Shown piece by piece: positions 11,409 to 40,494 of a DNA stretch of 64,000 nucleotides. The position numbers and the translations under genes were made by a program. The notes under the pieces were generated by a model, which saw only the letters and a list, made by a program, of their open reading frames with translations, had not been told where the DNA came from and searched no databases. Within the stretch, counting starts at the first letter, position 1, and each line of letters starts with the position of its first letter. The DNA is from an uncultured virus (IMG/VR IMGVR_UViG_3300035498_000616) (lineage: Duplodnaviria > Heunggongvirae > Uroviricota > Caudoviricetes): the IMG/VR virus record IMGVR_UViG_3300035498_000616, one strand, 5' to 3'.

Positions 11409-11456
11409 AAGGGGAATCTCGGTAGCTTCGGCTGCCGGGGTTCCCCTTATTTTTTA
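11407..11456. terminator. bidirectional intrinsic terminator between the convergent blocks
   Basis: GGGGAATCTCGGTAGC-TTCG-GCTGCCGGGGTTCCCC stem with a cUUCGg loop, flanked by an A-run and a T-run. Confidence 0.88.
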
Positions 11457-14400
11457 CTTTTGATCTCTTAACCACATTGTATAAGTGTCTTTAAACGAAC
11501 GAGGCAAAGCTTGAGATCCAATTGCTAACTATCCTAAAGTTTTATCTCCAAATATAAAACTAAATAAATCATTATAAACTCGTGACATTAATTTATAACT
11601 CGCAGGATTGGTAGAATTACCGAAATAATCTAATACCGCAAATGGACCTTTAAAACCATCCCACGAATTACTTGCAGCTTTATAAGTCATTTCAATTAAT
11701 GCATTCTAAACAACTTTAGTTCCGTCACCATTTGTTTTATGATCTTGATATTCTTCTGATAACCAGCATTTAAACATTGCAGCTAATAATCCTCCAATAC
11801 TAATATGACTTAACAACTTACGAAAATTAGCTCTTTGAATTTCATTAGCCCATACATTACTTTTAAAAGATTCCCATCCTCCATTTTTTAATTCTTTAAT
11901 AGTATCAGCTAATGTATAAAAAATTCCTTGAACCATAATTGGAACATCTTCCATAACAGGTAATTTTTCATTACCACCTTCTTCAAGTGTTACAGCGTTC
12001 ATATTTTCATCAAAATACAATTTATTACCTGCTGCGTCAGTTTCTTGTTTCCATTCAGTCTGAGAATTAGTTACTTGTCGTTTTTTACTATAAGTATCTA
12101 CGATTCCGTTAAACCATGTTGAAAACACACAGAAATTTCTTCCAATTGCTGTATTCTCATATTTAGCTTTCTAGCTCTAGTTATATGATCCGTAGATATT
12201 ATCAGCAAATGTTTTAAATGTTTGAATCTATCCTAATGTATAAGCATCAGGAAGATCATCTCCTTCAACTAATTTTGTATTGTTTTCCTAATTAAACTAT
12301 CTAAGTAAACTTAAATAATTACTCCGTTCTGTCCAATATTCTTTTTTACTCTAATCTCCAGATAAATAATTTTTAAATCTCTGATCGAGTTTCCAATCAT
12401 ATTTTAACTTTCCATCAACAATAGAATATGCTTTTTCTACTCCATCATGATGCATTTTAGCAGAAAATAATACCATTCTATTTAAATAATCAGGTCTTCT
12501 TAATGTAGAGAATAGCCAATTTTCATAATTTATGATACCACCTCTTCCTGTTTTCTAACCTTCGGAGATTCGAGCGACATCAATGTTAGAAAAACGATAT
12601 TTAAGATTAAACTAATTAAGTTTAGTTATAGACATTAAATTAGTTGCCCCTTCTTTAAAGACAGTTCCGTAACCATGAGCAATATCAGAAGCATTTAAAT
12701 CAGTTTGAAATTTAATACAGGCAGCAACAGTATTTTCTAACATACCTTGCATTGTATCACGAATGGCTGCTACAGGATTTGCTGCAATATAACACATAGA
12801 AACTGCTTTTCTAATCGGAGCAATAACAGCTTCAACTTTCTAAGAAGATTCTTCCATAATAGAATGATTAAACACACTCACATCAAGGAAATCTTCAATA
12901 GTTTTGATAGTACGTTTAATATTATCTTGATTACCTTCTGTTTCTCCACGAAGATACAAGTCAAGTAATATTCCTTTTGAACGTGTAAGCATTTTATTAT
13001 ATTCAACTGACTAAATATGTTTTTCTAAGAAATCAATAATTAAATTTTCAACATTAGTTTCAAAATAATCTGTTCCTTTTTCAGAAATATAATTTTCACG
13101 TCTATTCTAATCTTCCGATCGAATAAAAGGATTATATGCTTGAAGATTTTCTATATCTCTATTACGAGCTTCTTTTTCCTCATCATTTAATAAATCTTCT
13201 GAAAATTCTTCAAATGCTCCTTTTGGATCTTTTAAACGTTTTGCCCATCTTCTAAAGAACTCGTTAAATCCATGTTTCACATTAGTTCTTCTAGTGGCTA
13301 AAGAAGCTCTTTCAAGAGGAATATCAAGATAATTTGTAGTTGTAGTATTTATATCCTAAGCAATTTTAGGATCATTATAACTTTTATATTTAAAATCTGC
13401 TCCGCGCATTTCAGCACGAATTTTATTAAATTCAAATAGAATTTCTTTTAAAAATTGTAATTCAGCAGGTTTTAATTCATTCTAAACTTCAGGAGAATAA
13501 GGATTTTTAAATCTCATTGTTTTCTCTCCAGTAGTTTTATCAATTTCTAGAAGATTTGTAAATACTCTATTTTGATTACCAATAACACTATTTTCTAATG
13601 GAGTGTAACCAATAGCATCATAATATTTTTTGATAATTTTCTTAATAGGAGCATAACGATCCATCATCTAATCTGCAATAACGTTAGCTGATTTTTGAAA
13701 CATATATCCAACTACTCGAACGTTAGTGTTGCTAATATCCTATGGACGTTTAAAATATTCTTCGAACGAATCAAAGTTCTCGTTAAACAGACTAATGTCT
13801 CCATTGTACACATTAATTGCATGAAGACAAGAAGTATATAATTTAGATACAGATGCAATCAATGGGTTAGGATCGTGACACTATCTCGTTAATTCTTTCG
13901 GGGCAAGTGATATACCATTAGATTCCGCAATATTAGTTAACTAATCAATAATTACTTGTAATTTTTCAAGCTTCCCTTCAATAGTTTGTTGCGATTCAAG
14001 TCCATCAATAATTGTTCCGTCAGTTTTTACTTTTTTAATAATATTATCTTCAAGTCCTTTAATTTCATTTAAATTTACATTAGGATAATCATTAAATACT
14101 TCTTTCCACTATTGAATAAATGTTTCACTTGGATCAATTACATTATCTCGTTTGAAATTATTTTTATCATCAAATGTACTTTCATTTTTCTTAACCACTT
14201 TCAAAATTGTTTCAAACTATGGTAAAAGTAACTACATATTAAACATAGCTCCTTTAGTATTACGATAATTACTCAACGATAATACTTTTAAGTCTCCAAA
14301 TTTAGGTTGAAATGAAAAACTCGGAATAATTTTATTAATTAATGTTAATGTTCTAATTGCTTCGATGTTTCCAAAATTAGATTGCATTGTGAAATTTTCA

Positions 14401-16040
14401 TTATTTAAATCTGGAATAAACTATCCTAACAAATTATCACGTCCTTTAGCTTTACTTGTTTCAGCAATATCAAAAGGAGTTAATGTAATTACATCAACCT
14501 AATTAGTAATCTTGTGTCGAAACATTAAAATATTAGCATTATGTAATACTTCGTTTTCGATAAATTCCCATTTATAATCTGGATCTTCATCAGTGCTTGT
14601 GTTATTAGTTTCAAAATACTTCTGTAAGCTATTACTAATCATTGAATAATTAGATCCTTTAGAAGATGATGTAGAGAAGAATCTTAACTTTTGTCGAAAA
14701 GATTCTTTAATATCCTGAATTACACGTCTAGTAGATTTTTCCATTGCTTCTTTTCCATATAATTCTTCTTCTCTATCACTTACTAAATTAATTAATTCTA
14801 TGTTTTTGTCACCAACATGAGTATCGTCAATTTTAATAATTTCTTTTTCTCCAGGAAGTTTAATATCCCATCCTTTTTGTCCATCTGATCTAGGTTTAGC
14901 AATTCCTTTCCAATGCTATCTTACCCATCCAGTAGCAGATTGTTTAATTCCATGTGAGAAAATATTTGTTCCTCTACCTTGAAAAATTGTACTGAGTTGT
15001 TTATTAACAGATGTAAATATATCTCCTTCTATCACATCAATAGTTGCGTTTGATTCGATAAATTTAGCTGCAACCTTATCATATTTTTCAAGATTATATA
15101 TAGAGTCTTTACTATCGTAACTTTTAGTTCTTCCTACTTCAATATCAATAACGTTATCCAAATTATCATCATATTTTAATTTTACAGGAATTAAATTTAC
15201 ACGAATATTTGCTGCGTTAATTCCGTTAAATTCAAGAATACGTTTTAAAAATGCTAATTGATATTTATACTTTTCTTGTTTTACTGCTCCCCATTCTGAT
15301 TCATTATCTAATGAAGTTTTTAAATTAAATATTTCAATAGTTCCATCAGGTTTAACAGTTAAATAGTCAATATGTCCTAATATTTTTTCAGCTTCTCCTT
15401 TTATTTGTGCTTCAATATTAATATTTCTAAGAAGCTAAGTTTTTTGTCCATCAACAGTTCTATTTCGAAGAAAAATATTTCTCTCAATTTCTGATGTTGC
15501 TGTTTTCATTTTATCATAAATATATTCAAATGCTGTTCCTTGGCATTTTTGAGCAAAACTATAACTATCGTTATCACCTCTAGATGAAACAGCAATTTTA
15601 TGAAAATCAACAGCATTTTTTGCAATTTTATCTTTCCAGTTTTTAGTTAATTTGTTTAAATATTGATCAGCTTCATCCTCTGACATTCCTTCATTCATCA
15701 ATCTAGTTTTAATTAAATCTTTATATTCATCAATAGATAACTGAAACATTGGACGTTTTCCATCAATAGTAAATTTACCAGAATCAACAAATGTTTGAGT
15801 AGTATAATTTGTTCCAGAATTAATATCTGGATCATCACCTAACACATCGTCAGAAGATTTAAAATCATAGTTTTGATTTAAGTCTTTAATCTTATCAACC
15901 GTTTTACTTTGCTAATCAGTTTCTAAACTAAACAAGATAGATAATATATTTGATAAATCTTCGTTAGAAAGTTTTTTAATAAGATTATCATATCCTTCAA
16001 CTACTTCGTTCGTAGCTGTATTTCTATATTTACATGCCAT
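11454..16040 (-). CDS. giant virion RNAP-cluster/cargo protein with a PD-(D/E)xK-like domain, 1528 aa (TAG=Gln)
   Basis: Six ORF-track fragments share one frame and end in TAG. Start MACKYRN at 16040, TAA at 11454. GHIDYLTVKPDGTIEIFNLKTS...YKYQLAF lies at ~15250-15380. Confidence 0.8.
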
Positions 16041-16043
16041 ATA

Positions 16044-18692
16044 TTAACAACCGTATTCTATTATTTTTCCATCCTTGATCATCTATCTTACTAACTAAGA
16101 TAATTTCATATTCTTCTTAACATCTGTTATGTTTTCTGAAATTAACTAACTCATCATATCAACAAATCCAAGATCATTAGCAGATTTTCCTTGTTCGATA
16201 TTTATCCGTTTTTTTAGATTTGTTGTAATAAATTCAAAGTCTTTCTAAATTTCAGAACCTAACTATTTTGCATCAAGCATAGTAAGAAGTTCTTTTTTTC
16301 TAAACATTTTCTTAGCAATTAATGTAACAACTGCTTCTTCAATTTTATCCTATTCAGCAAAATTAGTATATACACTACTAATTCGATTAAGCTCTCCTTT
16401 AAAAGTTCCTAATCCTACGTTCTTAATATAATTAGAAATTATAGTTTGGTATTCACTAGGATATTTAGCTTTAATTACTCCTAGAAAAATATGTGAAATT
16501 TCATGAAATAAATCAGATAAATCTCCATCAGTAGTATTTATATATATTTCTCCATCATGAACAAACCCTCTAATATTATGTAGTTTTTCAGAATTTATTC
16601 CAAGTTTATTTTTATTATTAAATTCTACTAAATCATTAAATGTTAAAGTATGAATTTTAAGTCCTGGAATTTTTTCAACAAAGTAGTTTACAGCATTTTC
16701 CATCGAAGATGTTAAAATATGATTTGCGTCTGTATCGTCATCATAAGTTCCAGAAACATTAATATCGTTTCCGTTATCTTTTAAGAATTTGACAATACCT
16801 GTATTCTAGCTAAGTTTTTGTTCGATAATATATGATACACGCTTTGCTTCACTAATTTGTTTTATGATCTACTCTAAATCTTGACGATGTTTATTTAACT
16901 CTTCGTTTAATTCTCCGTTACCAATTGCTTTATAAGCTAATAATAAAAATGACATTCCATCTTCAGGAGTATGTAAGTTTTCAATACCTTTTAAATAAGA
17001 AAATGTTTGTTTAACAGTATCAATTGTTCCGTTATATATTAATGACTAAAATGTCGAAGGCAATAAAGATAACTTAACTTTAGGTAATTCAATATCTTTA
17101 ACAGTAACTAATCCACCTTCCTGAAATTTTCCATCAATGAACATGACACGTGATTGTTCTTGTTTCATACGATGTAATCCGTTCTCTAATAAATTTTCAG
17201 TTTTATTTAAATAATCAATTTTCTATTTTGCAGCATCAATTGAATCATAAATAGAAGGATATGTTTCAGGATTTACATAATAATTAGAAACTAAATAAGA
17301 TATTTTATTAGTTTTCGGGTTTACATATTTATAAATAAATCTTCCGTTGTACAATCCTTCATTAACAGAACCATCTGAAGTTGTTACTGGAGTAAATAAT
17401 CTTTTAGTATTATAAGCAAAATCATACGTTTTATTTAAATTAGTATATGGAAATTTGATTAATACTGTAGGATTGGAAACTTTTGTAGTAGTCTAATCAG
17501 CAAGAGTATATTTCGCTGTAATATTCCCTTTTTCATTTAAACTAATAGATACGGAATCAGCTATATTTCCTTCATTATCAGTATAAGGATGATTTTGAAA
17601 ATATTCATTTAACTTATCAACTACTTCTTGAGCGTTCTCTTTAACAGCTTTTTTATATTCTTTTGCATCCTTATTATCATTATTAATAGTTTTCCAAACT
17701 AAACTTAAATCTTCTTTGTTAATAGTTTTAGTTTTATCAGAAGTTTTAGTTGTTTCTTTTCCAGAAAATATTGTGTCAAGTTCGTATTTAACAAATTTAG
17801 GATCATCCTAGAAAACTTCTTCTAATACTTCATCAAGTTCTTCTTTAGTATAAGTTTTAAATTTATCATATTCATCAATATCTGATTTGTAATTTTTGAT
17901 TACGTCATATAATTTTTTCATATTAAATTTATAATCAAATTTAGAATCAGAAATATTAATATTATCCAAAGCCATTCTCAAATCACTTTTTCTAATATTA
18001 TATTCAAAATCATCAGTTAACTAATATAATATTTCATTTAAAACTCTTGCGGCATTAATAATTCGTTTGTTTTGCCCTTCTCCAATTTGAATTAAATGAC
18101 AATATTCACTTTTATTATTTAAATAATCAAGTAAAATTGCTTTGGGAGTTGATTTAAACGCTTTAGCTATAACATCCATATCTGGAAATTTCTAAGCATA
18201 ATCTTCTATTAATGCTTCCCCGTTAAGAATATTACTTAATTTCTTTTTTATATTTAAATAATTAAAAAATTTTTTAGCTCCTGCATATCCATTAATTACA
18301 AAAACTTCTTTTCCGTTTGCATCTATTGCTCGACCAAAATATTCAGATCCATTAATTCTCATTTTACTAGCCTAAACAAGAATATAATTATCATCAATAT
18401 CAGCACCTATATCTGGGAACTATTCGGCTAAACTAGGCCATTTCTTTTGCATTGTTTCTAAACTTGTATTGCTAATCCATCTTCCTTCTTTAACATCATT
18501 TTCAGTTAAATTTTTTGACTAACTAGTTAAAATTTCATGTGTTAAAGCATTTCTTGTTTTCTTATCAAGATTAACAATCATATTTGCTATCTGTTCAAAA
18601 GATATAGACTCTCCGTTTTGAATCAGAGAGTCTACATCTTTATTTAATAGCAAAGTTCTTTTATCAAATTTAATTTTTAATTGACAAGCCAT
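16044..18692 (-). CDS. virion protein with a zincin-like metallopeptidase domain, 882 aa (TAG=Gln)
   Basis: Start MACQLKI, end ...IEYGC-TAA. RGFVHDGEIYIN...LFHEISHIFL (HExxH at 16491-16505) with a downstream EEAVV. Confidence 0.8.
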
Positions 18693-18695
18693 ATA

Positions 18696-21600
18696 TTAAC
18701 ATTGAATAAATACGTAAGCCTTACTATTTGTAGAATAATTAGTTAAAATAGTTTTAATAGTATCCAAAATTTCTTGCTTTTGCGCATCATCGAAATCATC
18801 AAAATTTCCATCATAATCAATAGCAGTGTGTAATATAAACTATTTCTACATTTCAGGAAATTCAAATGGACTATTCTCGTAAAAGTTTTTCATTCGCTAT
18901 AATTTTTCATCATTAGTTTCATCGTCAAATTTATTTGGTAAATAATTAGTATATTCTAGATAATCATTATTTCCATATTTAACTTTGACAATATATCCTT
19001 GAATAGGATCTTTAACTTTAATGAATTTTTCTGTAGCAAATCGTTCAGAAAACGAACTAATGGTTGGAGCAATATTAATTAAATAATCATTATTGCTATA
19101 ATCAAAGTTATCTTCGAAACTCATATCACCATCTCCAACAAATTTAAGATATTTATTTAAAATATTATCCTAACCAGATGTTTTCTAGAATATTGTAGTT
19201 AAACGATCGCTACCATATTGATTATAGTTAACTAATAAATTATATAACTACAAAATGTCAGCAATTGTATAGTTAGATTTATCATATTTAATTCCTTCGA
19301 ATTGTGCAATTCCTTGAAGAATTTCTCCATATCCATACTTGGAAATGTTAGATATGTCAGGATTCATCAAGTCAATGTCAGTTGCCAATACTGATCCGTG
19401 ATCATTAGCGGTAACTTTTAAATGTTTTACTAATGGATTAGAACCATAATTATCCTATAAATATTTTAAAAATTCATTTTCAACGAAATGTTTAAACGTC
19501 ATAATTCCGTCTATTGAACTAAGATCAGCATAATCAGTAGTAATACTCTAATAATATTTGTTGAATCCCATTACATATTTATGAAACGGAATAGGACCAC
19601 TTTTCTCAGATCCATCAGTCATTAAGTGATTAGCAAACTAGATAATTTTATATTTATCATAGAAAGAACTTATTTTTCTAAAGTTTTCTTCAGTTAAGTT
19701 CTAATTATTTTTTCGAATTGATTTAAAAATAAATCGAGTTTTTTGTGCAAATTCATTTGAAGCTACAACCGAATTAAATAAATCAAGAATAGCAGAATAC
19801 TAAGGTAGAACTTCCATCATTTTAAAGATATTTGTAGTTCCCATGATTAAATCATAATAATCCGCAACGTGTTTACGATATGATTTATCAGAAAGATATT
19901 TTAAAATATCAAATTTATTAATAATATCTTCATATTCATCAAAAGTTTTTTCTGTAATTTCTTTATTCGGATTATTCTCTTTAAGTTTCTACACTAACTC
20001 TGATCTATTTTTCATAATAATTTCGTCAGATTTTTCTTTCTTTGGTTTATTCTTTCTGTTATCTTCAAACATTTCATTATCCTACTCAACATCATCGTTA
20101 ACTACGTTACTATTTTTAAATATGTCAGCTGCAACGATACCTAATTTGTTTTCACGAGATGTAACAATTCGCTACATCTTATTTAACTTATTAACAATTC
20201 CAACAATATCTGTAGGAATACCTTGATTCAATGATAAAAATGCTGTAGCAAAATCAGATAACTCTGAAGATAAATCATATAATTTTTTAAATTCAGCTAT
20301 ATCTTCATAAAATTCTTGAACTGTTGAATATTTATCGTATGTTTGTCTAAGTTTTTTAATTAAATTTTGACAATAATTTAAATACTAATTCATTTCAATA
20401 TCATTAACTTCAATTTCTCGTAAGTTAATATTTGTATCAGACAAAGCCAAATTAATAGCAGCTCGCATTGCTTTAGAAAGAGGAACAGAATTTATGTCGT
20501 CAACGTTAACTCCGTCGTGTTCAGCGATCCAATTTTTAATTTTATCTTCTCCAACATACTCAAGAACTCTATTTGCAACATAAGTAGATTTCGCAGTAGT
20601 ATAAGATTCATCTGTATCTGGATCATATTCGTAATAACTTCCATGTAAAAATTTACTATGACCAACAATACCTTGAGCTAGATTAATAGCCATAGAAGCA
20701 TTCTTAAACGTTGAATTATTAGAAAATACATTTCGATTAGCTTGACTATCAATAAATTCAGATACGTCAGAAGTCATAAATGATACTAAATCATCAACAT
20801 CGAATCCCATAATAAAACCAAAAATATACATTCTCGCAAAGTTTGTTCCAGAATTAATACGCGCAAGAATTAACTCTTTAGCATTATCGGTTGCCGCTGA
20901 CAATAACTAAGAAATTTTCTAATCAACATAACTATATTTAAATTCATCGTCAGTTACTCCAAATGTATTCATTAATTCTTTTCGAATTCGCTCGTCTTTC
21001 CAATTTAAATCAGGTAAATGATCAATTGTTGTATTTTCTAGATTTTTCTTAGCGCGTCCTTTAATACGATTAAATTTAACATTAAATTTTAATTCATTTC
21101 CTCTACCCTTTTTAAGCATTTCGTTCCAATAATAGAACATATTAAACCAAACTTTTTCACCATTTGCTGCAATACTAATTACGTTTTTACCAACAAGATT
21201 CTAATATTGCATAATATATTTAGTAAAAGGATTTAACATATTTAATGTTTTAACCTAACCGTTTTTTGGAGAATTATTAGCAGCTTTCTACAAATCAGCC
21301 ATTGTTACTGCTGTGTATGCTTGATCTCGATTTCGAATATCATGAGCTACTGCGTAAATATTAGCTGAAGCAGAGTTTTTATATATAGCTTCTGATAAAT
21401 TATGTGGAATAGGAGTAAACTCATGTCTATTAATTTTATCAATTACTTCTTGAGCAAACTCTTTATCAGAACCATCATATTTAACATTTACTTCTTTATC
21501 TTCATCAGTTACATTTACATTAGATTCAACCGAACGAATAATTTCAACCAAATCAAGTAAATCATTGCTAGATTGATATTTGTTAACCGCTTTGGTTATA

Positions 21601-24600
21601 TCAACATCTCCATCTTCTGTTAAATTAACTTTAATTTTCTTTGGTACTGGAATTTGTTTACTTTTTTCAAATGATTCTGATGTACTATAATCAAACAATG
21701 TACTCCATCCAATATAACCTCCATTAGAATCGTAGCTTTGTCCCATGATATATGCTTTATCAATATCAAGGTCAGATCCTTGTAAATAGAATTGGAAGTG
21801 ACTCACATAAGCCATATTTTTATCATTTAATGTCCATCCAACATTACGCATAGACATAAATGACTAAAGTGTTTGAGCAGGGATACGTGAAGAAATAAAA
21901 TTTTGAGAATCTAAGAAAGAAATCCAAGTTTTATGTGCTAATTTTTTATTAAATTCTTTTTCTAGCTACTATAATTTTAATTTATTTTGTTTTCTATTCT
22001 CAGCCCTAACTTCTTTTCTTTTCTTTATTTGTTCTTCTGTAAGTTTAGCTTTTTTACCTTTTTCATCTAAAACAACAGAATCGTCGTCAGTATCAATAGC
22101 ATCAAACTGTGCATTTAATAAATCTTTTACTGCTTGATCAATATAATTATTTGAATCAATAAAAGAACATGCAGTTCTTAATTTTTTAATATCTTTATCT
22201 GAATATTTACCGTAACGATTTAAATGAATATTACGATATGATCCCGATTGAAACATATTTAATAATATTTTAGCACGTTGTTTTTGTGCGTCTTTCATTA
22301 ACTATGGAAAGTTTGGATCATCAGAAGATATTTCTTTTCCGTTATTAAAAACTTTAATAAAAGTATCAATAGGAGCTAGTTGATAAAGAACATTATCTTT
22401 ATAATAAACTTCTTTATCATTAGTATATTTATCCATTACTCGATATTGATTAACATACATAACTTTTCTTTTTACAGATGTTAAATCTTTTGGATTATCG
22501 AGCATAAACATATTATCCTCTTCTGTATAATTATTACCTTTGTTATCGTAAAATATTAATTTTCCAACACCGTTTCTTTCACAAGTAACAGTATCGTCAT
22601 CTATCCAAGCTCCGACTTTATATAAAGGATGATTATTTTTTACAAGATAAATTTCTCCTTTTTCATTTGTTTGTAACTGATTGTTATTAAATTCAACCTT
22701 TCGAATTAATTCTGATTCTTTAACTGGTTTAAATGTTACAAGCAAATTTTTCCCATCTTCATTTAAAAATGCTAAATCATATCCAGAATATTGAGGAGGA
22801 ACAAATTTATTAATTTTTTTCAAGAAATAATCTTCACCTTGTTCTAATATTTCAGATAAAGATTCATCTTTAATTCCGAACTTATCTTTATACATATTAG
22901 ACAAAATAAGTTCAGCAGCTGTATTTTCTAATGTTCCCTTTTCAATATCTTTAACTACATCATCGTCGTCAGTAAATTGTCCAGCTTGAATTCTATGTAA
23001 TTCATCCTAAATTAATGTACGATAATTAACATTTTTAAATTCAGGATTTGTATATGCTTCACGAATATGTTTAAAATCAAAAATATTACGATATTTAAGA
23101 TTTCCATTAGCATCAGCATATTGCCATCTGATTAAAGAAGGACGTAAATTGTGAGCTTCAGTTACGTTCACTTGATAACGATAACGAGACGTTTCTTTTA
23201 CTTTTTTAAATTCGTTTACTGGAATTACTGAAACATTATTATCTTTATCAAAATAAGCAACTTCATAAGGTTCTCCGACTTTTTCAAAACCATCAACTGT
23301 AGAAATACGATTATAACCAGAAATAGATCCTTTAGTTAATCCACCACGTTTAGTTTTTAACTGTTCTTCCGTTGTCGGAGATAATCTTACAACAGCATTT
23401 AACGGAAGAATATCCAAAGATGCGTTAAGCAATCTCATTTTTTGTTCTTCTGTAAACTAAACATCAGATCCCCAAGGAACTCTTCTTTGAGTCGTTTCAT
23501 CAAAATTTCCAGTTCTAAAATGTATATTATATTTACCAGTTGGAGTAATGGTTTGTTTTCCATCTTCATCAGTTTTAGTTAATACTTCTCTTTCAATTCT
23601 AAACGATGCATTAGGACTATCGTTTAATATAATATCAAATTTTCCTTTTTTCCAATCTGATTTAATTTTTACATTGTAATATCTTTCAGATTGAGTAATA
23701 TTACTTTTAAAACGATAGTAGTCATCTAAGCTATCAAGTTTGATAGCATCTCCAACCTAATTTCCTTCACTATCAATCAAATTAACTATATCGGAAGGCA
23801 TAAACCAAGAATAATCATCAGTAACTTCAATTTCGTTCTACTTTTTCTTAAGATAGTTACGAATCATTTGTCGATCGTTATCTAATTCATATTCTCCTTT
23901 ATAAGCCTTCATTGCGTTAACTAACTCAACACGAGTTCGGAAACTACTATTTAAATAATATTTTTTATTTCTGTAAGTAATAACAGGAATCTTACCTCCT
24001 CCTTTTACTTCTTCTTCAGTATATTCTTTTCTAGCTTTAAGAATTTCCCACAATTCATTATCATAATCCTATTTTGCTTTCTTTAAAATATCCCAAGACA
24101 TGTATTTCTATCCATTTAATTCAAAATACATGGCTGAACCATAAGCTCCAACTAAGACTGCTCCTGTTCCAGGATGTTTACGTTTAATAGCTGTTTTATT
24201 AACAGTTGATGCAATTGTTGCAATAAAATCAGAATATATATTTGGATCACTAAAAGGAATTTTTACAGAATCATCATTATGATTACTATTTTTATAAAAT
24301 ACATTATTTACAGCTTGTAATATAATGTGCTATAAATTCTCTTTATTTTTAATACTAGCATTAGCCATAAGAATTCTTCCGACAGCTTCATAAAATTCTG
24401 ATTTAGCTTTTTCAGGATTATCAGTCTATGATAAAAAGTTCTTTGCTTTATCAAGCAACTACCTTTGAGATGAAACGGCTGCATATCCTAAACTAGAAAA
24501 AATTTCAGTCGGATAAGGAGTATATCCATAAGCTGAAGTTGCTGTAATTACCTATGAAAACTCTGTTAATTCAGAATCAATAACTTCGTGATCTGCATTC

Positions 24601-27600
24601 ATTTGCATACCAAGACCATCAGTATCTGCGTCAAAAAAAGTTAATTTAGAATCATCAGTCCAAGCAGATGTTTGATTAATATTTTTTGCTCCGTTTTTAA
24701 CAGCTGTATTGTTTAAAACATATCCAATATGATATTTTTTTAAAGGTTGAACATAGTGCGTTTGATTAATAATTTTAGATTTATCACCTTCAACTTTACT
24801 TCCTACATTATTCATAAATGAAACAACAACTTCATTTACAAATTCAGAAGCATTTCCTTTCTAATCGACACAATGTAAACCTCCTAAACTTTCCCATAAT
24901 TCATATAAAGAATTAATAGTCCGTTTGTCAGTTAATTCTTTAGGATAATTCTAATCAATACCCAATTCTGTTTTAATATGTTTACCGTTTTCATCAAAAG
25001 TGTGATATACTTTCTTTTCAGATCCGTCAACTAAAGATTTAATATTTTTTTCAATCGTATAATAAGTTCCGTGACTTTTTCCGAATCCAATTATTTCAAT
25101 TGTTTCTCCATATTCATTTTTATAGAAAAGACGATTAGAATTAGTCCAATCATCTCCATCTTTAGTATTTTGTAAAATACAACCTTCCCAGTATTGAGTG
25201 CTCTTATTTTGCATATCACCTAATATATAGTGATGCATCAAATCAACATCGCCTTCCCACTATAAATCAGTCATTTTCTTAAATAACTTTAACAAACTAA
25301 AGTCGGAATTTTGAGACATTAACATAGCTTCATTGGTAGTTGTATTGGTAGCAAATTTAGCTAAAAATGCAGTACATCCATTTGCGTCAAAACTATGCCA
25401 AATAGGTTTCTTTGTAAATCCTACTGCTTGTGAACCTAACGCTTTATTTTCTAAGATACACTAAAATGGATTGATATATCCTAATCCATCATGTGGTTTC
25501 TAATTATCTGATTCTCCACGATAATTAAAAACTGGAGCTTTCATATCATAAATAACAGCACATTTAGTCTTAGCTAAACATCCATCAATAGTGTCGCCAG
25601 ATAAATACTACAAGGTTGCAGGAATAATTACATTACGTTTGAACTGCGTACCTTGTGCTGTATTCATAATAGAAGTCATCGTATTTTCATAAACTGCTCT
25701 TAATATACTGTCGTTATTAGCATCTTTCAAGTCACTAACTGAACGAGTACCCAATATTTCATTACGAATATTCTAATATATAACTTCACTAAGTTGTCCA
25801 TTTGAATCACGAAATAAATCTTTTGATTCTTTCAAATCATTGAGAGTTTTCGCTTTCTTGATAAGATTATATAAATTTTGAGATTTATCAGGATGATTAA
25901 TTTCAGATCCAGTTAATGACATACGCATATTATTAGAATATAATCCTTCAAGATAAAAGAATTTATCTAATAAAGGATTTAATTCTACTGAATAATCATG
26001 ATTAATTTTATCATCAATAATATTTGTTACTGTTCCGTCTTCATTTGTTTGTTTACCTAAAATTAAATATCCTGTTTTTTCATCAACCCAATTTTTAAAG
26101 AAATCTGATCTATCAGAAAATTTAGGAAATACAGCATAAATAATTTTTAAAATTTGGTTGTTATAATCAACTTTACTATTTGGATTAAGAAAATCTACAT
26201 ATTTCTAATTGAATCCTAATACCTAAACTAAAAAATTAGCATTAATCAAGTTGTCAATAAAGAATTTCTTCTAATTTTCTAATGTTTTGTCTAAATTATC
26301 ACGATTAGCATATAAATCATTAGCGTAATATTCGAGAATTTCATTTACGTCAAGATATTCCTTATTATCACTTCCTTTTAATTTTCTATAATCTTTATCA
26401 AGTTCAAAGTCAACTCCAACTTCTGATCCTAACTAAATCAATTCAGATTCATTAATAGAATGTAATAATTGACGAATATCATAATTTGTTCCATTATTAG
26501 CATTATAATAATCGGTTACCGCCTATAATTTCTGTTGATTATCTCTCCAAATTTCTTTATACGTTTCTCCAACAGTTGAGATATATTTATCAATAATAAT
26601 ATCTTTATAGTTATCACTTTTTAAAATATCTCTATCATTTGCAGTTTTAGCATCAATTAAATTGGTAGAAATTAAATAATTAATAAAGGTTGTTTTATCA
26701 GAATATGTTGTCGGCTATATAATTACATTTCCATCCTAAACATACTATCCCCAAAATTTATTAAACATAGCATGGTGAAACAATTCTCCAGAAGTAAAAC
26801 TTTTAACAGCAAGTTTATCAAGATTAGCAGTAGTTACTTCTAAATCATGCGGAATAGATTTAACTAAACTACTATTTTTAACGAATAATAAATTAGAAGC
26901 ACTATTAGAGTCACGCTATTTTCTTAAATAATACATTAATTCTGTTCCAAGTTTATTTACTCCGTTGTTAGGAATGTTATTACCTTGATTATCTTTAGTT
27001 GTTGATTTAGAAGCATCGCCAGCAATAATAGATTTTGCATCAGCTAATTGCTATAATACACCATCACTATAATTAGCAATAACGTATTTAACTTCATTGA
27101 ACATTTCCGAAAACCATTTGTTTTTTAACTTATTATTTCCATAAGTTAAATACTATGAATTTTTAGAATCAGTTAAATATTGTTTTAGTGTTTTGTCGCC
27201 TTTTTCTTCATATTTTGAATTAACGTATGCAGCTCTCATTGCTAATGCTACTAATGGTTCTAAATAGTATTTACCACCAGTATCATCATTTTGAACATAT
27301 CCTTGTTTGTACGTACTTAAAACAGGAAGCATTACGTCAGGATTTGTTGTAAATCCAAGTCCAAGATGATCATCAATAAACTCTAAAACAGATTTTAAAA
27401 GTTTTTCATCATCACTATAAGTAAAATTATAATCCGCTAAAGTTTCTTTTTGATCTTTTTCAAAAATATATTTCTACTAAAAATCAATCAGGTCAATATC
27501 GTTTAATCGTTTAAATAAGTCCGAATCAGAAAAATCAAGATTTGCACTATTCTCAAGAATTCCTCCAAGTACAGCATTTTTACAAGTTAATGTAAATAAT

Positions 27601-29561
27601 TCATCGCCAATTTGTACACTGTACTCTAGATTATCTACGTTTTCAGAATATTTAAAATTATATTTCTAACGTAAATTAGCGCATTCTTCAGTAGTACGAT
27701 CTGCATTAACTTTTCTATTTATATCCTGAATGAATACATTAGTAATTTTATTATTAAAATATTTTCTTTTAATTTTAACATGTGTAGTTCCATCGGTTCC
27801 GATATTACATTCAAGGTAATCCATAATAGTATTTCTATCAGCAATAGATGCAATTTCAGAACACAACTAATAAATTTTTCCAGTTCCTTGAGCAATTGTT
27901 CTAGTTTCTGTATTAATCAACGATTCAGAATTTTCTTTATCGAATACTGATTTAAATACTGAATACAATACGTTAATATCTCCAGGAGTTAATAACTTAG
28001 TTTTATTAATTTTGTCAATTAACGGACTAGTTGGATTAAACAAAGCATTTAATATATTATAATATCTTTCAGTAGGAGCTGCGTGAATTTTAAACGCGTT
28101 AGTGTATAATTCTTGCACAGATTTATTTGAAATAGAATCTCCTGACCATTTAATATTATTAAATAATAAATCGTAAGTTAAATGTTTTAACGCAAAAATA
28201 AAAGATACTGGGTTTGCACGTTTATTAATATATTTGCCAGAATGATAATCGTATATGTGAATTTGGTTCAAAATATTTTTAGCTAACGTAGCCATATATT
28301 TTTCTGCGTCAACACTTTCTCCTTGTTGCCAAGATGCTTTTTGACTAGAAATATCGTGGTGATATGAATACTTTTTCGGATCTCCGTCCTCAATTCCACT
28401 TAAACCTCTACTAATATTAAAATCTTTCCCGAATGTTTTCTTTAATAACTCATCAAAATGAGTAAGCATTGTATAAGCCTGCGAAGCGGTTAATAAATTT
28501 CTAGAATCAGTTTCAATATCTTCTAATACTTCAAGAACTGTTTTATCACCAATTTTAATGGTTTGTAATTCAGGTTTAGTATTGATTAATCGTCTAATAA
28601 ATTTATAATATCGTGATTTTTCAGAACCTTCAAATAACGACACTTTAGCTGAATTGAAACCAGTATTTCCAAATTTATTTTCTAGTCTTTTCTTAAAATC
28701 TTCATTTGAATCAATTAACGTGCTAACTAATATTTTATATAAATCGGTTTTATTCTTTCTATCCTCGTTATTATTTAATTTTCTCTAAGCGTCGTTAATA
28801 TCAGTTTGAAAATTATTAAGCTTTTTTACATAGTTATAAAATATATCCTGAGCTAAATAATATTTTGGACCAATGAATTTACCTGTATCATCAAACATAA
28901 AATCGGGCAAATTCTATATTTTACTATCTGAAGGCATTTCTTGTTTGAGAAACGAAACCATCTATTTATAGAATATATTTTTAATATTCTGCATGTTATG
29001 ATTTAATATAGTATTATCTCTCGCAACAATAGTTCCATCGTTTGAATTTCTATATGCTGCAAACATAACCCAGTCAGTAAATTTTTCTTCAATACTAGAA
29101 ATAATATTATAAGATCCATTTCCATATAAATCTTTATAATGCTCATTTAAATCATTAACAGCTTTATCGTGAATTGCAGAATCAGTTCTGGTTTCTTGAT
29201 CTTCATCTTCAAGAACTTTAATTTTTTGAGATTCATCAATTTCAATCTAAAATTCATTAGATACATATTCTTGCAATTCTTTTAAATCTGCTAATGTAGC
29301 ATTTTTAACTCCTCCTGCATTAATCTTAGCTGCATATTTTCCAATAAGAGAATTAAAGTCCTCCATGAACTAATCCATGGAGGCTTTATATTCTTCGGTT
29401 GAATTTTCTGTTTTTACAACTGTTGCTTTGAATCCTTTATTAGTTAACCAAGTTCCAAAACTTTCAGTATCTTTATTTTCAGAAGATAAATATTTTCTTA
29501 TCTCATTATTCAAAATTATTTTATCGCCAGATTGATACGATATTCCACATGTTTTTTTCAT
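18696..29561 (-). CDS. virion-packaged DNA-dependent RNA polymerase catalytic subunit, 3621 aa (TAG=Gln)
   Basis: Thirteen fragments share one frame. Catalytic GSDLDIDK (~21756-21779), SRIPAQTL(Q)SFM, HDGLGYINPF (~25460-25495) and SAATDNAKE are typical of crAss-like RNAPs. Confidence 0.88.
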
Positions 29562-32500
29562 TAGCAATTATTATCAATTAATTTCTCATAATATTCGTCA
29601 TAATTGTCTGACAAATAATCGTTAATCTCTTCAAATTCATCACCAAATAATTCTCTTAATTTATTAGCTTTTTCTTCATCAGATATTTCTAACTAATTAA
29701 GATCATTCAAAGTTTGTTTAAATGATTCAACTAAATCGGAATCTACCGAATCACCAAAATCAATTTTATTAATATAATCAATTAATGTTTCTCCATCATA
29801 TTTTTCTGATTCCCAGTATGATTTTTTAGTTTCTACAGGTTTTTTAGTTTCTGTCGTTTCTTCAGATTCTGTAAGAGTTCCATTTTTCATTAAATAACAT
29901 TCAGAATTATCATCAAATTTAAATATTACTTTATCTGTTGTAGACATATAATCTACAACTTTCTTTCCAAATAACTATTCAATATATTCTAATGGAGTTA
30001 CCGTCATAACATCACCTGAATCCGGTAATATGTATAAAGAATCACTATCAGAATTAAATAAAGCTTTTAAGTTAGATACACTTTTTGCTTTATTGTAAAG
30101 ATTATTTAAAATTGATTTATTCTAATCATTAATTAATTCATTCAAACCTGCAATATCGTTCGAGTATAAGTCGTCAAATTCATTTGCTCTTGCTAAAAGT
30201 TCTGATCCTTTTGGATATGCTGTTTCAAAACTTTCTCCTTCTTTTTTAGTTGGAGTTGTAGGTTTTATTTCATCTCTTCCAAAATCATCACTAAGTAAAA
30301 CGTCTAAATTTAAACTAACTCCTGTATGTCGCATATCCACATCAACAGTGAAAAATGAAGGATCGGTATTTCCAGTATAAAAAACAGCTTTTTTATCATC
30401 ACCGTCAATCGTAATCACTTCACCTTTTTGAACAATATCAGGATTAACAAAGAATCCGTTTTTAAATCGAGCGTCAGTCATTTGCATTACTTTTCCGCCG
30501 CCCACTGAAGGTTTATGAATATCTTCAATAGTTCCGTGAAAAATTAAATCAAACATATCAATTAAAGATCTATCAGGTAAATCTTCCGATCCTAAACCAG
30601 TATCTCGTTCGGTTTTAAGAGCATAAGCTCCGCCTTCACCGTTAAACCAAGATGTTAATTGAACATGTTTAACTTGATCATTTCCATTAGAATCTTTTGT
30701 GAAAATATCAGCAGATTTAGGAATATCTGCTTCCCAATTTTCAGTATGTCTTTGCATCCATGTAGTACCACGAATAATCGTAGTTACTAATTTAGGCACA
30801 GCGGACCACAGCATTCCATCAGGATAAGCAATACTAGAACCGTCAGCTTCAATAGTTAATCCACTACTTTGTCTATATTTAACTACATCAGATAAACTAC
30901 GTCTATGTGAAGCTTGTTCTAAATCAATTAATTCTTTTTTGTCCCAAGGATTCTTTTTAACTTTCTTACCATCAACTTCTTCAATATCATGATATAGTTT
31001 TAATCCTAAACCTACTTCAGATGTTAAATAAGGATCAATGATAAGCCTCATCATACTTTGAAATTTATTAAGTGTTTCTGGATCAATTACTAATAAATTT
31101 GCTTTATCAGTATCATAACAATTACCAACGCTAAATTGCTAAATGTGAAATCCATTTTTATCAGAAGCACCTAGTCTAAATGTAGGTATATCTTTTAAAT
31201 CTTCCAAATTAAATTTGTTAAGATTCTCAAGATCACTTTCTGTTACAGATTTTCCAGATAAATATCGTGCTCGTTCATCAGAACTAATTGTAGAATTTCT
31301 ATATAAATAATTTTGAGCTTCTAGAATATTTGTAACTTTATTAGAGTCATAATGATTTTTATTTACCCATTCGTCGTATTTATCTTTAAACTAAAGCATT
31401 GCTGCATTAAAGTTCCACATTGAAACAAACATTGAGATTCCTAAATAGTTTTGTCTAAAAGGAAGAGCACTTTCTTTTCCTTCTGCAAATTCATCTAAGA
31501 ACTTCTAATCGCACATTTGTCCCATTGTGATACCGTAATTATTTAATTTAATCATACGTACTCTCGGAGTATGAAGCTCAGGATTTTGTTTTTGTTGAAC
31601 GTATAAGTTAGGTAAATCATCAGGCGAAAGTGTCATATCATCCGAGACAAATATAACAGCTTTACCGCTAATTTTCTAATCAACGTTAATATAATTATTT
31701 TTTCCTGAATAAACATATACTTTAGATATTACATATCCAGGATTTTTATTTGTAAAAGTAACACTGTCAAAAGTACCAGTTTCATTAGGATTTCTATATC
31801 CATCAAGTCTAATATCAGATCCAGATCTTTTCTTAAACCATGTTTTCTAATTAAGACGAATCATCGAGCTTGGAATTTTTTTGTAAAATTTTCCATCGCT
31901 TTCAAATTGGTCAATCCATGATTGGAATTTATCCTTATATTTACTAGCTTGTGTATCAATCGTGTCTCTAATATTTGTTAATCTTGTTTTTTCTTCGCCT
32001 GTAGCTTTAGCAATTCTTTCATTTAAATTATTTTTAATCGTAGAAAGATTATTAATTAACGTCCTCGGATTATTTAATCCACAAATGTCAAAAATACATT
32101 CTCTTCCTGCTTTATTTTTTACTTTAAATACAAGATTAACTATATATCGTTTTCCATTCCACTCAAGACCAACTTCTTTTAATCCACCAATCGGAGTAAG
32201 TTCGTCTGTTTGTCTAATTTCAATTGCATATTCTCCATTTTCCCAATCTTCTTTTCTGAACTTATTACGAATACTATCATCAATTACATAACGACCAAAT
32301 TCCTCTTCATCCATAGTATGATTATATAATAATATGGATTTAAGAGTATATAATCGGTTTTGCATTGCAATTTTTTCAGAATACCAAAATGCTCGTTTTT
32401 CATTTTTTTCATCAGGATCAAACAAAGCTTGACAATTTCGTAAAGGTCCATCAGTAGGAAACTTAATAACCCAAGATTTACCTTTATATTCTTTTCCGTC

Positions 32501-35500
32501 TTTGGTTACTGTTTCTTCTTCACCTTCTTCTGCTCCAATGAATGTAACATCTCCATATCCTTCAAGATCAAACTCAGATGAAGCATAAGAAGTTGTATCT
32601 TTTGAATCATCTTCTATTTCAGATTCAAATTCTTCGTCAAAAAATTCATCAAGTTTTTTATCTGTATCACTTGTTTCTGGATCATGAAAATCAGTTGGTG
32701 AAATAGCAGAATCTGGACTAGTTGTAGGTGACACAGGACTACTAGTTGAAGTTGTTGTAGTAGTAGAACTTGCTGGAGTAGTTGTAGCAGAACTACTTGA
32801 AGTAGTAGGACTAGTTGGTGACGCAGGACTACTAGGAGTTGAAGTAGTTAGATCTGGAATTAATTTATCATCAGCATTAGATAAATCAAACTAATTTAAA
32901 ACATTTAATTTCTTTTCAATTAATCTATCTATTGCAGATTTTCCGTCAATTTTATCATTCAAACTAGGAGCTTTAGCTTGATATTCTGAAATGTTATTTT
33001 TTCCAATGATATTAGATAAACCTCTATCAATAAATATCGCAGCTTCTTTACCGCGACTCATTAATGTATATAAAGTCTATAAAAATTTACGAGCACCTAG
33101 TAAATCATTAACACTGTCAAAATTATGATCAATTACAACATAATCAAACTCCTAACCTTGCATTTTTTCTACAGATAATTCAACAGGATTAATACCTTCT
33201 GCTTTCAACTACGAAAGCGTACTTGAAGTAGTTGGACCAATAAATCCCACTGTTTTAGTCGCAGAAATTGTTTTTAATTTTTTAATAAGATCCGTGTCTA
33301 ATGATGAAGTTATCAAATCACCATTAATTTCATCTCCATTAAATACTCGCAAATTAAATTTGCTCATTGCATTTAGTACATTAGGAAAATATGTACCAAA
33401 TTCAGAAGCTGTGTGTTTTTCAATAAGATCCATTGTTTCATCTAATGTGTTTCCAACAATATCCAAATTTTCTTGTTTTTGAATATTATTATCACGTAAT
33501 GATGTTGTTAATCTTGGAGTTCTTACTGCAAACACATCATATTTTCGAATATTATTTATATCTCCATTTGCTGAATATCCAAGCTAACGAGGATCTCCGA
33601 CTAAGATTAATTCTCCACCTACAGATTTCATATAATTATTAAGAATAGCTGCACTAATACTATTTAAATGTGTAGCTTCATCAATAACAATCATTCTAGG
33701 AATTTTATCAAGTTTCTAGAATGTAATAGGAGCTGTATCTTTTAAAATCGGAGTAGAAAAATCATCTTTGTCAAGCGATAACTCAAAATACGGATTATCA
33801 ACAGTAGGTGTATTATAAGCGTTTCGTAATTCGTTATATGTAGCTTCTCCGACTATTTTTACCATTAATTCGTCAATAGTCATACGAGTATTAACATTTA
33901 ACGATTTTCCGAGACTTGTATATTGTGTTTCAGTCGGACCGCAAGCAATTATATCATCTTTATCTATTCCACAATCAGCAATATGCTTTACAACAACACT
34001 GGTCTTACCTGCTCCTGCTCCACCTGTAATAATTGTTGTATTAGATAAAAATAATTTATCACTTCCTGACTTTTTATAACCATAACTGATAATATCTCTA
34101 AATTGTTGATTAAATCCAGCAAGAGCTAATCTAGCTCCATACTCCTAACTGGTAATTGGAGCAATATTGTGATCATTATCAATTTTCTTTTTAATATAGT
34201 TGTAAAATGTTGCAGGATTCTGTGTTAATACAGAAGCAAAATATAAAAACTTATCGTAATCAGTAAATGATTTCAAATCTGCATTAATTGCAGAAATATT
34301 CTATTTTTTAATATTAGAAAGATCAACTAATTTATCGAATAGCTGCGTTTTCTCTAGAAATTCAGTAATAGTTAATCCGCTATCCTTTAATGCTTTCTAA
34401 AAATTAGAATAAAGTAATTTTTCAACATTATATACAGGAACACCAACTTCATCAGTATCAACTTTTCCTGTATCAATAGAACTGATTCCTTCGAGTAAAT
34501 CATATTCTTTATCATCAACTTTTACATGAAACTTAGGTAATGAATCTTGATAAGTTTCCCAAATTGCTTTTTGAAATGCTTCATCTCCTCTAACAAACTA
34601 TGCAGATTTATTAATTCTGTTTCTGTTTGATAAATTAATCCAAAATTCCAATTCACCCTAATAATTAACTAATGCTTGATTAAAAGCTAATGAATAATCT
34701 GAATCTATTTCAGGCAATTCTTTCCAATTACGTACAACATCTTTATGATTTCTTGCAAATTCATTAATCATTTTATTGTGACCAATTGGATTTTCAAGAT
34801 TAGATGTTGAGGATGCAGCATATAAATATGTAGAAACTAAAGAAAGAATATCTTTAGTATTTTGTAATGTTTTAATTTTAGTTTCATCAAGAGTAAGATC
34901 TTGAATATCATCAATAGTTTCGGCATCGGATTGAATTTTCTACAAAAGTTCAAATGCATCTTTTGCTTCTTTGCCGTCAAGAGTTTTTCCAGCTAATGTT
35001 TTAAATAATTCATCAACAGGATTTATCAAAGTTGTATCAAGACTATTACTGAATTTCACAATTGCGTTATTCTTTATATTATTAATGATTCCAGAAAATT
35101 GAGAATCAGCATATGAATAACGATTCTAAATAAATTGTTTTAAATTAGCATATCCATCATCCAAACTACTATATGTTGTGTGATCAATTGAATCTACATT
35201 AAACAAATTCAATTCTGATGCTAGTACGTCTCCTCCTAAATATCCTTGTAACTAATCAACAATATCCAAGATTTCTTTAATTTTTTCAGGGCTTTCTGAA
35301 GCAATTAACGAATCAGGATTCATACTTGGATCGAATTCATTAAGAGCATATTCTTCTCCTTCTTCATCAGATTTAATATTTATTTCAGCCTATAAAGTAT
35401 TTCCAGATTCAAGTTCAACATGATATAACTTATTAATTAAATCTTTAACTTCAGATCCAGTTTTCTCAATCTTAGATTTATTAATTAAATCAGAAATTTC

Positions 35501-38500: not shown

Positions 38501-38668
38501 ACTTCCGTTTTCATCCTAAAATAAAGGATTCTTTTTAATATAATCCGAATTTAAATAATCTTGTTTGCTTAACATTTGTGTGTTACTTACATCCATTTCA
38601 GCAACATTATGAAAATCAGCAACAGAAAATTCAGGATTATTTATGTTTGCTACTATCCAATCATTCAT
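29561..38668 (-). CDS. giant RNAP-cluster protein with an SF1 (RecD/UvrD-like) helicase domain, 3035 aa (TAG=Gln)
   Basis: Nine fragments share one frame; start MNDWIVAN. Motifs are ITGGAGAGKT (~34001-34030), IVIDEATH, LVGDPR(Q)LG, SVEKMQG(Q)EFD and LYTLMSRG. Gly/Ala hydrophobic segments lie in the N-terminal part. Confidence 0.85.
32700..32850 (-). repeat. Thr/Ser/Pro-rich linker encoded by an imperfect tandem duplication
   Basis: + strand GACTAGTTGTAGGTGACACAGGACTACTAG recurs as GACTAGTTGGTGACGCAGGACTACTAG; protein ...SPASPTSPTTSSSSATTTPASSTTTTTSTSSPVSPTTSP. Confidence 0.7.
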
Positions 38669-40494
38669 AAAACGTCTGCACTTGTATTATTAGCTTTTTT
38701 ATTAAAATTTCTGTATTTAGTTTCTTGCTATACAGCTTCATCGTAATCTAATTTCTAATTTGCTCCATATACAGCAGAATTAACATTATTTGAAATAGGA
38801 ATATAAATTGCTGCTTTATAAATATCTTCTACACCAAACCAGTCAAATGGATTATACCAATCAAATGTATCAATACTTGGAACTTTAGTATTTTTTCCTG
38901 TACCTGTAGTTAAACTACGTTTGATTAAATCAATTTCTTGATCAGAAGGATCTTTTAATTTCTTTACAAAACTAGAATCTTTAATACCATTCTTTTCAGT
39001 TGTATATCCTTCAGTAACCATAAATGCTCCAAATTTATCACGATTCATACTACCATCATCATTATATAAATCAGATAAATCGTATTTATCAAGAATTGCT
39101 TTTCTTTGATTTAAATCGTCTACTCCACGCAGTTCTTCTTGTGCCTATTCAAATTTCTGTAATATATCAAGTCTTACACTACCGTCTTCATTAATAGGTA
39201 AATCAGCTCTAATTAATCCTGTATTATTATAAGTAATATTACCTAGCTAATCCATAGATACTTTCTAATCACCAAATGTAATATTGTGTACATCTTTAAT
39301 AATACTCTATAATCCAGAATCAGCAAGCATAGTTTTTAATGAAGTATCGACAATTGGTTTACCAGCAGGAGTTTTAATTTGCTAATAATAAGTTCCAACA
39401 ACAGACATTTGAATTCCATTTCCTGGATCTATCATCATCGGCTAATCATAGCCCCCAATTCCTTTCATTACATTTAATTCAAGAGATGTTTTCAAATCAG
39501 TATTGTCGGTAATTTTTCCGTTATCTTTAGCATTTTGTTTAGCAGTTTTTCCTCCTTCCAAATCAACATCAAATTGTTTTGTTGCACTAACTTTAGAAGA
39601 TATTAATTTTCCAATTAATTGTCTAGCTCCTTTCTCTGTTCCATCTGATTTAATCTATAATAAGGTTTTAGCATTAACAGGTAATGTGCTAAATATATAA
39701 TCAAAAGCGGCTTCAGCTTGTATAGCCTAATCTTTTGTAAGTAATTTCGCTTTATATAAATCTTCCGTGGTAGCATTATATGTACCAGTAGATTGTTTTT
39801 GAGCTTCCATAAAATCCTCTAATCCTTTAATTAACTCACCTTGTTTGGTTTTAGCATATCCAGTATTAGAATTTTCATTTGAACCTAAACTACTTAACGT
39901 CTAATTAATTAATTCATTAATTGTTTTCATACCAACACCATTTTCAACTAATTTAAGAATATTGGTATTGTAAGCTAATTTAGGATTATAAGCTCGTAAT
40001 TGTAATAATTCTGAGTTAGTTAAAGGAGAATATCCATCATTATCCTTTAACTAATCTATTGTTAATAATTTAAAATCTCCTTCTGAATTTGCACATACTA
40101 ATTGACCTCGATCACTTATTGCATATTCATTTAATCCACCATTAGTGCTAACTTTTGAAAAAGCATTATCGTATTCCTTTTTATTAAAGTTAGCTACTTT
40201 CATTTGATTTAACGCAGATAAATATCTGCTAGAAATACTACTTGTGTTAATACTATTTCCATATTTTTCATCAATATAAAAATTCTATAACATTGTAGTT
40301 AATGTTTGCATATCAGATGGAAGCCCATCTAATTTTTCTAACATTTTCATTAAATCTTTATCTGTTAAATCAGCAGAAGAATCTTTTTCAGCAGCAGCTG
40401 TTGCTTTTGCTGAAGTATCATTCATAACAACTGGATCATAAGAAACAAGAGGAGGAAGTGAAGCACTTCCTCCTTGTTGAAATTTAAGAATCAT
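38665..40494 (-). CDS. putative virion cargo protein, 609 aa (TAG=Gln)
   Basis: Start MILKFQQGG; fragments 40285 and 38755 are in frame; TGA overlaps the next ATG. Confidence 0.75.

Follow-up and report, generated by a model that had tools for sequence, protein, structure and literature searches.

Facing terminal cysteines in the RNA-polymerase block of crassviruses, and a candidate disulfide-linked chain of ejected proteins

In a 64,000-nucleotide stretch of DNA from an uncultured virus (IMG/VR record IMGVR_UViG_3300035498_000616), indicated here as the window, four consecutive minus-strand genes, named A, B, C and D, appear to form the virion RNA polymerase (RNAP) block of a crassvirus. At each of their three junctions the upstream protein ends in a cysteine and the downstream protein carries a cysteine at residue 3 or 5; the outer ends of the block, the N-terminus of A and the C-terminus of D, have none. 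Such facing pairs are kept across distant Crassvirales and follow the fusion and fission of the genes, and this comparison of sequences argues strongly that the two cysteines of a junction pair with each other. The reading towards which we lean is that terminal disulfides join A, B, C and D into a reducible chain, for joint packaging and ejection.

The six terminal cysteines and the cysteine-free outer ends are found where the first-pass annotation of the window had placed them, on the minus strand and under genetic code 15. At junction 1, where the genes overlap in TAATG, A ends in LIDNNC and B starts with MKKTCG (29561): Cys3035, the last residue of A (codon at 29564..29566), faces Cys5 of B (29547..29549). 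At junction 2, B ends in VFIQC (18696) and C starts with MACQL (18692), so that Cys3621, the last residue of B (18699..18701), faces Cys3 of C (18684..18686). At junction 3, where C ends in IEYGC (16044) and D starts with MACKY (16040), the facing residues are Cys882, the last of C (16047..16049), and Cys3 of D (16032..16034). The junction coordinates of the annotation are therefore right, but the span it gave, 16030..29570, is too short: the whole chain reaches from 11454 to 38668. Cysteine is uncommon in the four proteins (0.34–0.52%; 11 residues in A, 15 in B, 3 in C and 8 in D), for a total of 37 in 9,066 residues, 6 terminal and 31 internal. With random placement within each protein, the probability that all six ends carry a cysteine ranges from 1e-10 (6-residue windows) to 2e-9 (10-residue windows), which bears out the claim that the matched ends are improbable by chance. 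Among 15 other late-block genes checked, none has a cysteine in its first 7 residues; one has a cysteine in its last 6, a cysteine-rich small protein at 60489-61097.

Relatives were fetched by their RNAP core (27–55% identity), giving a clade set of two phage records, 35 viral contigs and 69 metagenome contigs. A facing pair was defined as a cysteine in the last 8 residues upstream together with one in the first 8 downstream, and was counted, window included, at loci where both sides of the junction are visible; many clade loci being near-identical, distinct junction sequences provide the fairer counts. The pair is present in 90 of 90 loci (20 of 20 distinct junction sequences) between A and B, in 89 of 89 (17 of 17) between B and C, and in 83 of 83 (15 of 15) between C and D. 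Cys3 and Cys882 of C, together with its first methionine, are invariant in 18 of 18 aligned homologues, where identity is 17–37% and 14 columns in all are invariant; the third cysteine of C, Cys198, is private to the window and not conserved among these homologues. The invariance of both Met1 and Cys3 in C supports starts that lie upstream of the cysteines. Cys3621 is the sole invariant column among 10 homologous C-termini of B. In one relative using code 11, A has 1 cysteine in 2,967 residues, C has two and D one, all of them terminal.

Conservation of the terminal cysteines in relatives, a check proposed along with the first-pass annotation, extends to distant Crassvirales. The block of phi14:2 (g067/g066/g065) consists of three proteins, amounting to 5,398 residues, with only 4 cysteines, all at facing ends: residue 1797 of 1797, residues 3 and 2179 of 2180, and residue 3 of 1421. 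In crAss001 four of the 5 cysteines of the block are terminal (gp47 has only Cys2339, gp50 has Cys5, Cys1334 and Cys2404, gp49 only Cys5); here gp47 lies on the opposite strand, its end about 11.6 kb from the start of gp50, and the cysteines are kept. They likewise persist in DAC15 and IAS, with genes on opposite strands. Fourteen further named genomes (Steigviridae, Suoliviridae, Intestiviridae, Fipvunavirus and one unclassified phage) fit the pattern where their ends are visible; as caveats among the named genomes, the IAS sequence contains a run of N and, in crAss002 and bajarodcaudo virus 1, the cysteine comes after a later methionine than the annotated start.

An order-wide tally, based on gene position, was made on 41 representatives of 87 loci, excluding L090, misread by the automatic choice of genetic code, and the IAS virus (L046), where the run of N breaks the RNAP gene; further miscalls are possible. 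RNAP and the next gene feature the pair in 28 of 29 cases; at a further link of the chain it is present in 1 of 2. Outer ends carry no cysteine (0 of 27 C-ends, 0 of 11 N-ends), and internal cysteines of RNAP open reading frames are limited to 58 in 130,528 residues, or 0.044%.

Variations in the content of the block were also observed. L068 (14499-16232), L076 (11922-15413) and L097 (16105-17874) have a gene inserted between RNAP and the next chain gene; the three inserted genes share a similar N-terminus and no terminal cysteine. Longer chains are found in L075 and L076, with extra proteins bearing cysteines at both ends. The first cargo gene of p-crAssphage (L040:551-3124), crAss002 (L041:513-2186) and Fpv3 (L045:2096-3892) has a single near-end cysteine, for which the next gene offers no facing partner. 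Several crassviruses (L040, L198, L202 and L203) have annotated genes of the thioredoxin family close to the RNAP block; none was found among the 22 small open reading frames scanned in the window.

The pairs appear and disappear with the splitting and joining of the genes. One lineage has A divided into two genes, and in 25 of 26 split loci a further pair is present at the boundary so created; in the single miss, L142, the P-loop itself is interrupted, the gap amounts to about 500 bases, and the break is probably an intron. Where A and RNAP are fused, the N-terminal cysteine is absent in 8 of 9 long RNAP open reading frames and the C-terminal one stays, as in Fpv3, whose fusion has 1 cysteine in 4,287 residues, at its C-end; the ninth, in L083, forms a pair with a large upstream gene. 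Fusions of RNAP with D keep the cysteine of the N-terminal end alone. Three polyproteins made of A-like, RNAP and D-like parts (L089, L119 and L124; 5,472–5,623 residues; one of them complete and the other two truncated at the 5' end) contain no cysteine at all. Intron-type breaks of B at its catalytic motif show no pair. Intron-like inserts with an open reading frame of 231–235 residues lie exactly at this motif in L001 (23100-24230) and in many of the loci L003-L037. The reading of L090, under code 4, as a fusion with an internal cysteine pair was rejected: code 11 gives three genes and both pairs. As judged from these sequences, pairs occur at points lacking a peptide bond and follow the same order as the fusions, and the signal appears to reside in the proteins. 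Such tracking indicates that the two cysteines serve each other, and argues against ring closure or homodimers. It also provides a rule for annotation: a break in the block with facing cysteines marks a true gene boundary, while a break lacking them is likely an intron or an error.

The geometry of the junctions was analyzed in 58 distinct junctions of the clade, selected as having the pair. In all of them the cysteine is 0–5 residues from the C-end upstream and at residue 3–7 downstream, and exactly one cysteine is present within 15 residues on each side; near the junction, none of the 58 upstream sides and 10 of the downstream ones contain a histidine. Intergenic gaps vary from -19 to +18 bases, covering all three frames (11 are in frame), both cysteine codons are used, and offsets vary. 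Were the pattern a by-product of the nucleotide sequence, such as a translational coupling motif or a stop read-through giving one polyprotein, the in-frame arrangement and identical short spacer of window junctions 2 and 3 would be accounted for. The variation of gaps, frames, codons and offsets, together with the persistence of the cysteines when genes lie on opposite strands, as in crAss001, DAC15 and IAS, led to the rejection of both stop read-through and a junction DNA motif, and leaves this explanation a negligible probability.

The proposal, made with the first-pass annotation, of modelling the terminal peptides as a complex was followed for junction 2. The model of B 3575-3621 with C 1-57 scores 0.44 (runs 0.58, 0.10, 0.44), as compared to 0.02 for the best of 3 controls; the runs show a contact agreement of at least 52% and a partner pLDDT (predicted local distance difference test) of at least 43. 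The mark used is reached by 116 of 157 solved complexes and by 2 of 215 mismatches, rough counts for which own alignments were used; within the mark, scores of 0.60 or less are seen in 18 of the 157 solved complexes, plus both mismatches. The model thus weakly suggests that the C-end of B and the N-end of C may bind each other. Both ends feature alternating hydrophobic residues, as in pairing strands, and probably pair strand against strand. The AlphaFold model of C as a whole (pLDDT 70.9; predicted template modelling score, pTM, 0.36) is unreliable at both ends, where pLDDT is 41–43, and is therefore uninformative on ring closure.

A solved precedent is found outside the crassviruses. In cyanophage A4 (Anabaena phage A-4L), cryo-electron microscopy revealed a disulfide between two ejection proteins, linking Cys1715 of gp27 to Cys5 of gp26 (PMC12002296). 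These two residues, the former in a protein of 1717, are the only cysteines of both proteins and, as in the window, adjacent ejection-protein genes are involved and a cysteine near one C-end faces Cys5 of the next protein. A4 differs in having one link and two proteins, in belonging to another phage family and, in the accessible text, in having no virion RNAP named and no rule or chain described. The window features three links and four proteins, with an order-wide tracking of fusion and fission, and its bond is predicted from sequence; its terminal cysteines, moreover, are not the only ones, a respect in which phi14:2 does match A4. A fold search with C alone returned an A4 chain at an E-value of 1.8, which shows no homology.

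In the proposed mechanism, the C-terminal segment of each protein would dock onto the N-terminal segment of the next one, bringing together the terminal cysteines, between which a disulfide would form by oxidation, probably once the virion has been released. The product would be a linear A-B-C-D chain of 9,066 residues, about 1,036 kDa, equivalent to the single polyprotein of some relatives. The chain would hold its pieces in a 1:1 ratio and together, both in packaging and in unfolded passage through the narrow tail, where one piece would draw the next; the reducing cytoplasm of the host would then separate them, with no need for a protease. Passage through the tail requires a partial unfolding of the crAss001 cargo (PMC10172136): non-covalent contacts would break in the process, a covalent end-to-end link would not. 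Virions of crAss001 contain disulfides between subunits, located in the tail and at the portal vertex (PMC10172136); the proteins identified in these virions include gp47, gp49 and gp50, and a reducing gel shows bands near 150, 270 and over 300 kDa (PMC6235969). The first-pass annotation had suggested linkage by either a disulfide or a shared metal. Pairing of the ends is strongly implied by the fusion and fission rule; as to its chemistry, a disulfide is favoured over a metal because of the A4 precedent and the presence of one cysteine per side without an upstream histidine, and by this analogy it is proposed with moderate confidence. Timing, ordered ejection and release are put forward less firmly than either pairing or chemistry. 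A wider reading, possible and held tentatively as a whole, is that the terminal disulfide stands in for a peptide bond, with which it would be interchangeable while remaining reducible: the cargo would be joined in gene order as a megadalton thread and drawn through the tail whole, host reductants would dismantle the thread, and new links would arise whenever the block splits.

The disulfides might form and yet act as static staples, either of a complex preceding ejection or as a hold following it, with no role in threading order. All the comparative results fit this equally well, and in A4, where a helix contacts a cleft in the outer layer of the pre-ejectosome, the bond is said to add to the stability of this contact (PMC12002296). 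A staple, on the other hand, need not lie at chain ends, yet the cysteines are terminal in 58 of the 58 pair-selected junctions, and the order of linkage is the order of fusion; this makes the staple unlikely, though a serious candidate. A shared metal ion, as in a zinc clasp joining neighbours or a pair of chains, would work in a reducing cytoplasm and in anaerobes, and several copies of each cargo protein are packed, so that four thiols could meet. The single cysteine within 15 residues on each side of every junction, the scarcity of histidines reported above and the disulfide of the solved analogue make it quite improbable. Finally, the cysteines could act within one protein, closing an N-to-C ring, between identical copies, or as sites of lipid or thioester modification. 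B and C, with cysteines at both ends, would suit this, and the model of C, uninformative at its ends, does not speak against a ring; A and D, however, have a single terminal cysteine each, fusions of A with RNAP keep only the C-terminal one and those of RNAP with D only the N-terminal one, and fusion removes the two cysteines of a pair jointly, so that we regard it as very unlikely.

A number of points weigh against the disulfide chain. Phage assembly occurs in the cytoplasm, which is reducing, and gut anaerobes are the likely hosts, which makes the oxidant hard to account for. The depletion of cysteine is relaxed in the window proteins, given their 31 other cysteines. The pair between the previous gene and RNAP is found in 9 of 12 cases of the tally by the strict rule, or 10 with a later start. 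The three misses are of different kinds: in L041 the pair requires a later start; in L048 the only cysteine stands 31 residues away from the end; in L074 the break is an overlapping one and there is no N-terminal cysteine. Other exceptions are L076 and L097, where a gene is inserted and the distal cysteine of RNAP lies 290–400 residues from the end. The first 1,500 residues of A, compared to the first gene of three-gene relatives, give a probability of 4.6%, that is no homology, so that the equivalence of A to that gene is positional. The fused polyproteins of crassviruses are thought to be likely cleaved (10.1101/2020.03.07.982082), and fusion need not, therefore, mean ejection as a single thread. 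In the crAss001 map the cargo proteins are not resolved, and the disulfides named in the accessible text are all in the tail and portal vertex (PMC10172136).

The genes of the block are part of a minus-strand region, 11454-63995, where long genes are open only if TAG is read as glutamine. The block is sited after crassvirus ring and muzzle genes, recognized by Pfam matches to PF24228 (61578-62273) and PF25731 (50690-56476), respectively. Gene A (29561..38668; 3,035 residues), the first link, contains at residues 1544-1734 a superfamily-1-like helicase domain (Pfam AAA_30, E-value 3e-12), followed at about residues 1950-1995 by a low-complexity linker rich in serine, threonine and proline. Gene B (18696..29561; 3,621 residues) encodes the RNAP: its DxDxD catalytic motif, read from the translation, is GSDLDIDK, in a region conserved in relatives. 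Gene C (16044..18692; 882 residues) has a zincin-like HExxH motif (H730, E731, H734). Gene D (11454..16040; 1,528 residues), the last link, matches the protein following RNAP in other crassviruses (profile probability 97%, E-value 1e-10, 92 columns). Two cargo-like genes at 38665..45506, on the same strand, lie upstream of the chain and outside it; their products (609 residues with 1 internal cysteine; 1,671 residues with none) are taken as cargo from their position after the muzzle gene. That A, B, C and D are probably injected, and present in virions, is proposed by analogy to crAss001.

Some searches were negative: B, C and D have no match in Pfam and PHROGs; profiles of the flanking genes from three-gene relatives do not match the window proteins taken as single sequences; viral contigs searched with protein C alone yielded no relative (0 of 23 candidate stretches); the closest database record (G001) has no RNAP match; a fold search with the model of C gave no match at E <= 0.001. 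The window is a probable member of the Zeta group of crAss-like phages: contigs of its relatives reach 185 kb and use codes 11, 15 or 4, and their RNAP genes are broken at the DxDxD motif, all traits described for that group (PMC7886860).

Two more features of the window are worth reporting. On the plus strand, 2253-5905 encodes a NUMOD protein, a DNA polymerase B fragment and two GIY-YIG endonucleases, and is probably an intron-broken polymerase region. The motif K[FY]QxGG occurs six times in four late minus-strand proteins (38665-40494, 40491-45506, 45572-45832 and 16044-18692), and the corresponding genes of L001 and L002 contain similar forms; the motif may signal the packaging or processing of cargo proteins.

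The block itself, its location in the virion, its variable fusion, up to one polyprotein in some crassviruses (10.1101/2020.03.07.982082), and the one A4 link are already known. The window shares with crAss001 (gp47/gp50/gp49) and phi14:2 (g067/g066/g065) a gene block preceded by the muzzle gene and two cargo genes, the RNAP motif, a homologous D and the terminal cysteines, common to these cultured phages; it differs in having four genes instead of three, a separate 882-residue HExxH protein, a helicase domain in A and more internal cysteines. In Schitoviridae (N4, DEV) a giant ejected RNAP shows suppression of cysteine, ascribed to passage through the oxidising periplasm (PMC11445570, PMC13434306): that enzyme is a T7-like single polypeptide with essentially no cysteine, whereas B has 15, and it resembles the fully fused, cysteine-free crassvirus polyproteins rather than the linked chain. 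Terminal cysteines are not mentioned in the accessible parts of PMC10172136, PMC12386605, 10.1101/2020.03.07.982082, PMC7886860, PMC6235969 and PMC13434306. No description for crassviruses emerged from a literature search whose coverage ended short of subscription papers, of the Nature version of the gp66 paper and of the tables in the PMC10172136 Extended Data; these tables include a disulfide list and reduced and non-reduced mass spectrometry, and all of these sources may bear on both novelty and bond. The statement in the first-pass annotation that no description was known holds, within this coverage, for crassviruses, but a single such link has been described in cyanophage A4 (PMC12002296).

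The window adds a probable Zeta-group case, where internal avoidance of cysteine is relaxed and the terminal pairs are kept without exception in the loci examined. The problem addressed is one of delivery: several MDa of cargo have to pass, in order, through a crassvirus tail narrower than 50 Å. The crAss001 structure paper regards packing and the interactions of the proteins with one another as the likely determinants of ejection order (PMC10172136), and the structures of these ejection proteins, according to a 2026 paper, still need resolving (PMC13434306). The pattern names residues, partners and order and, as it occurs in cultured phages, is testable by a non-reducing gel. The wider reading of the terminal disulfide as a stand-in for a peptide bond would, if true, represent a general redox-cleavable polyprotein system, setting the order of ejection in the most abundant gut phages.

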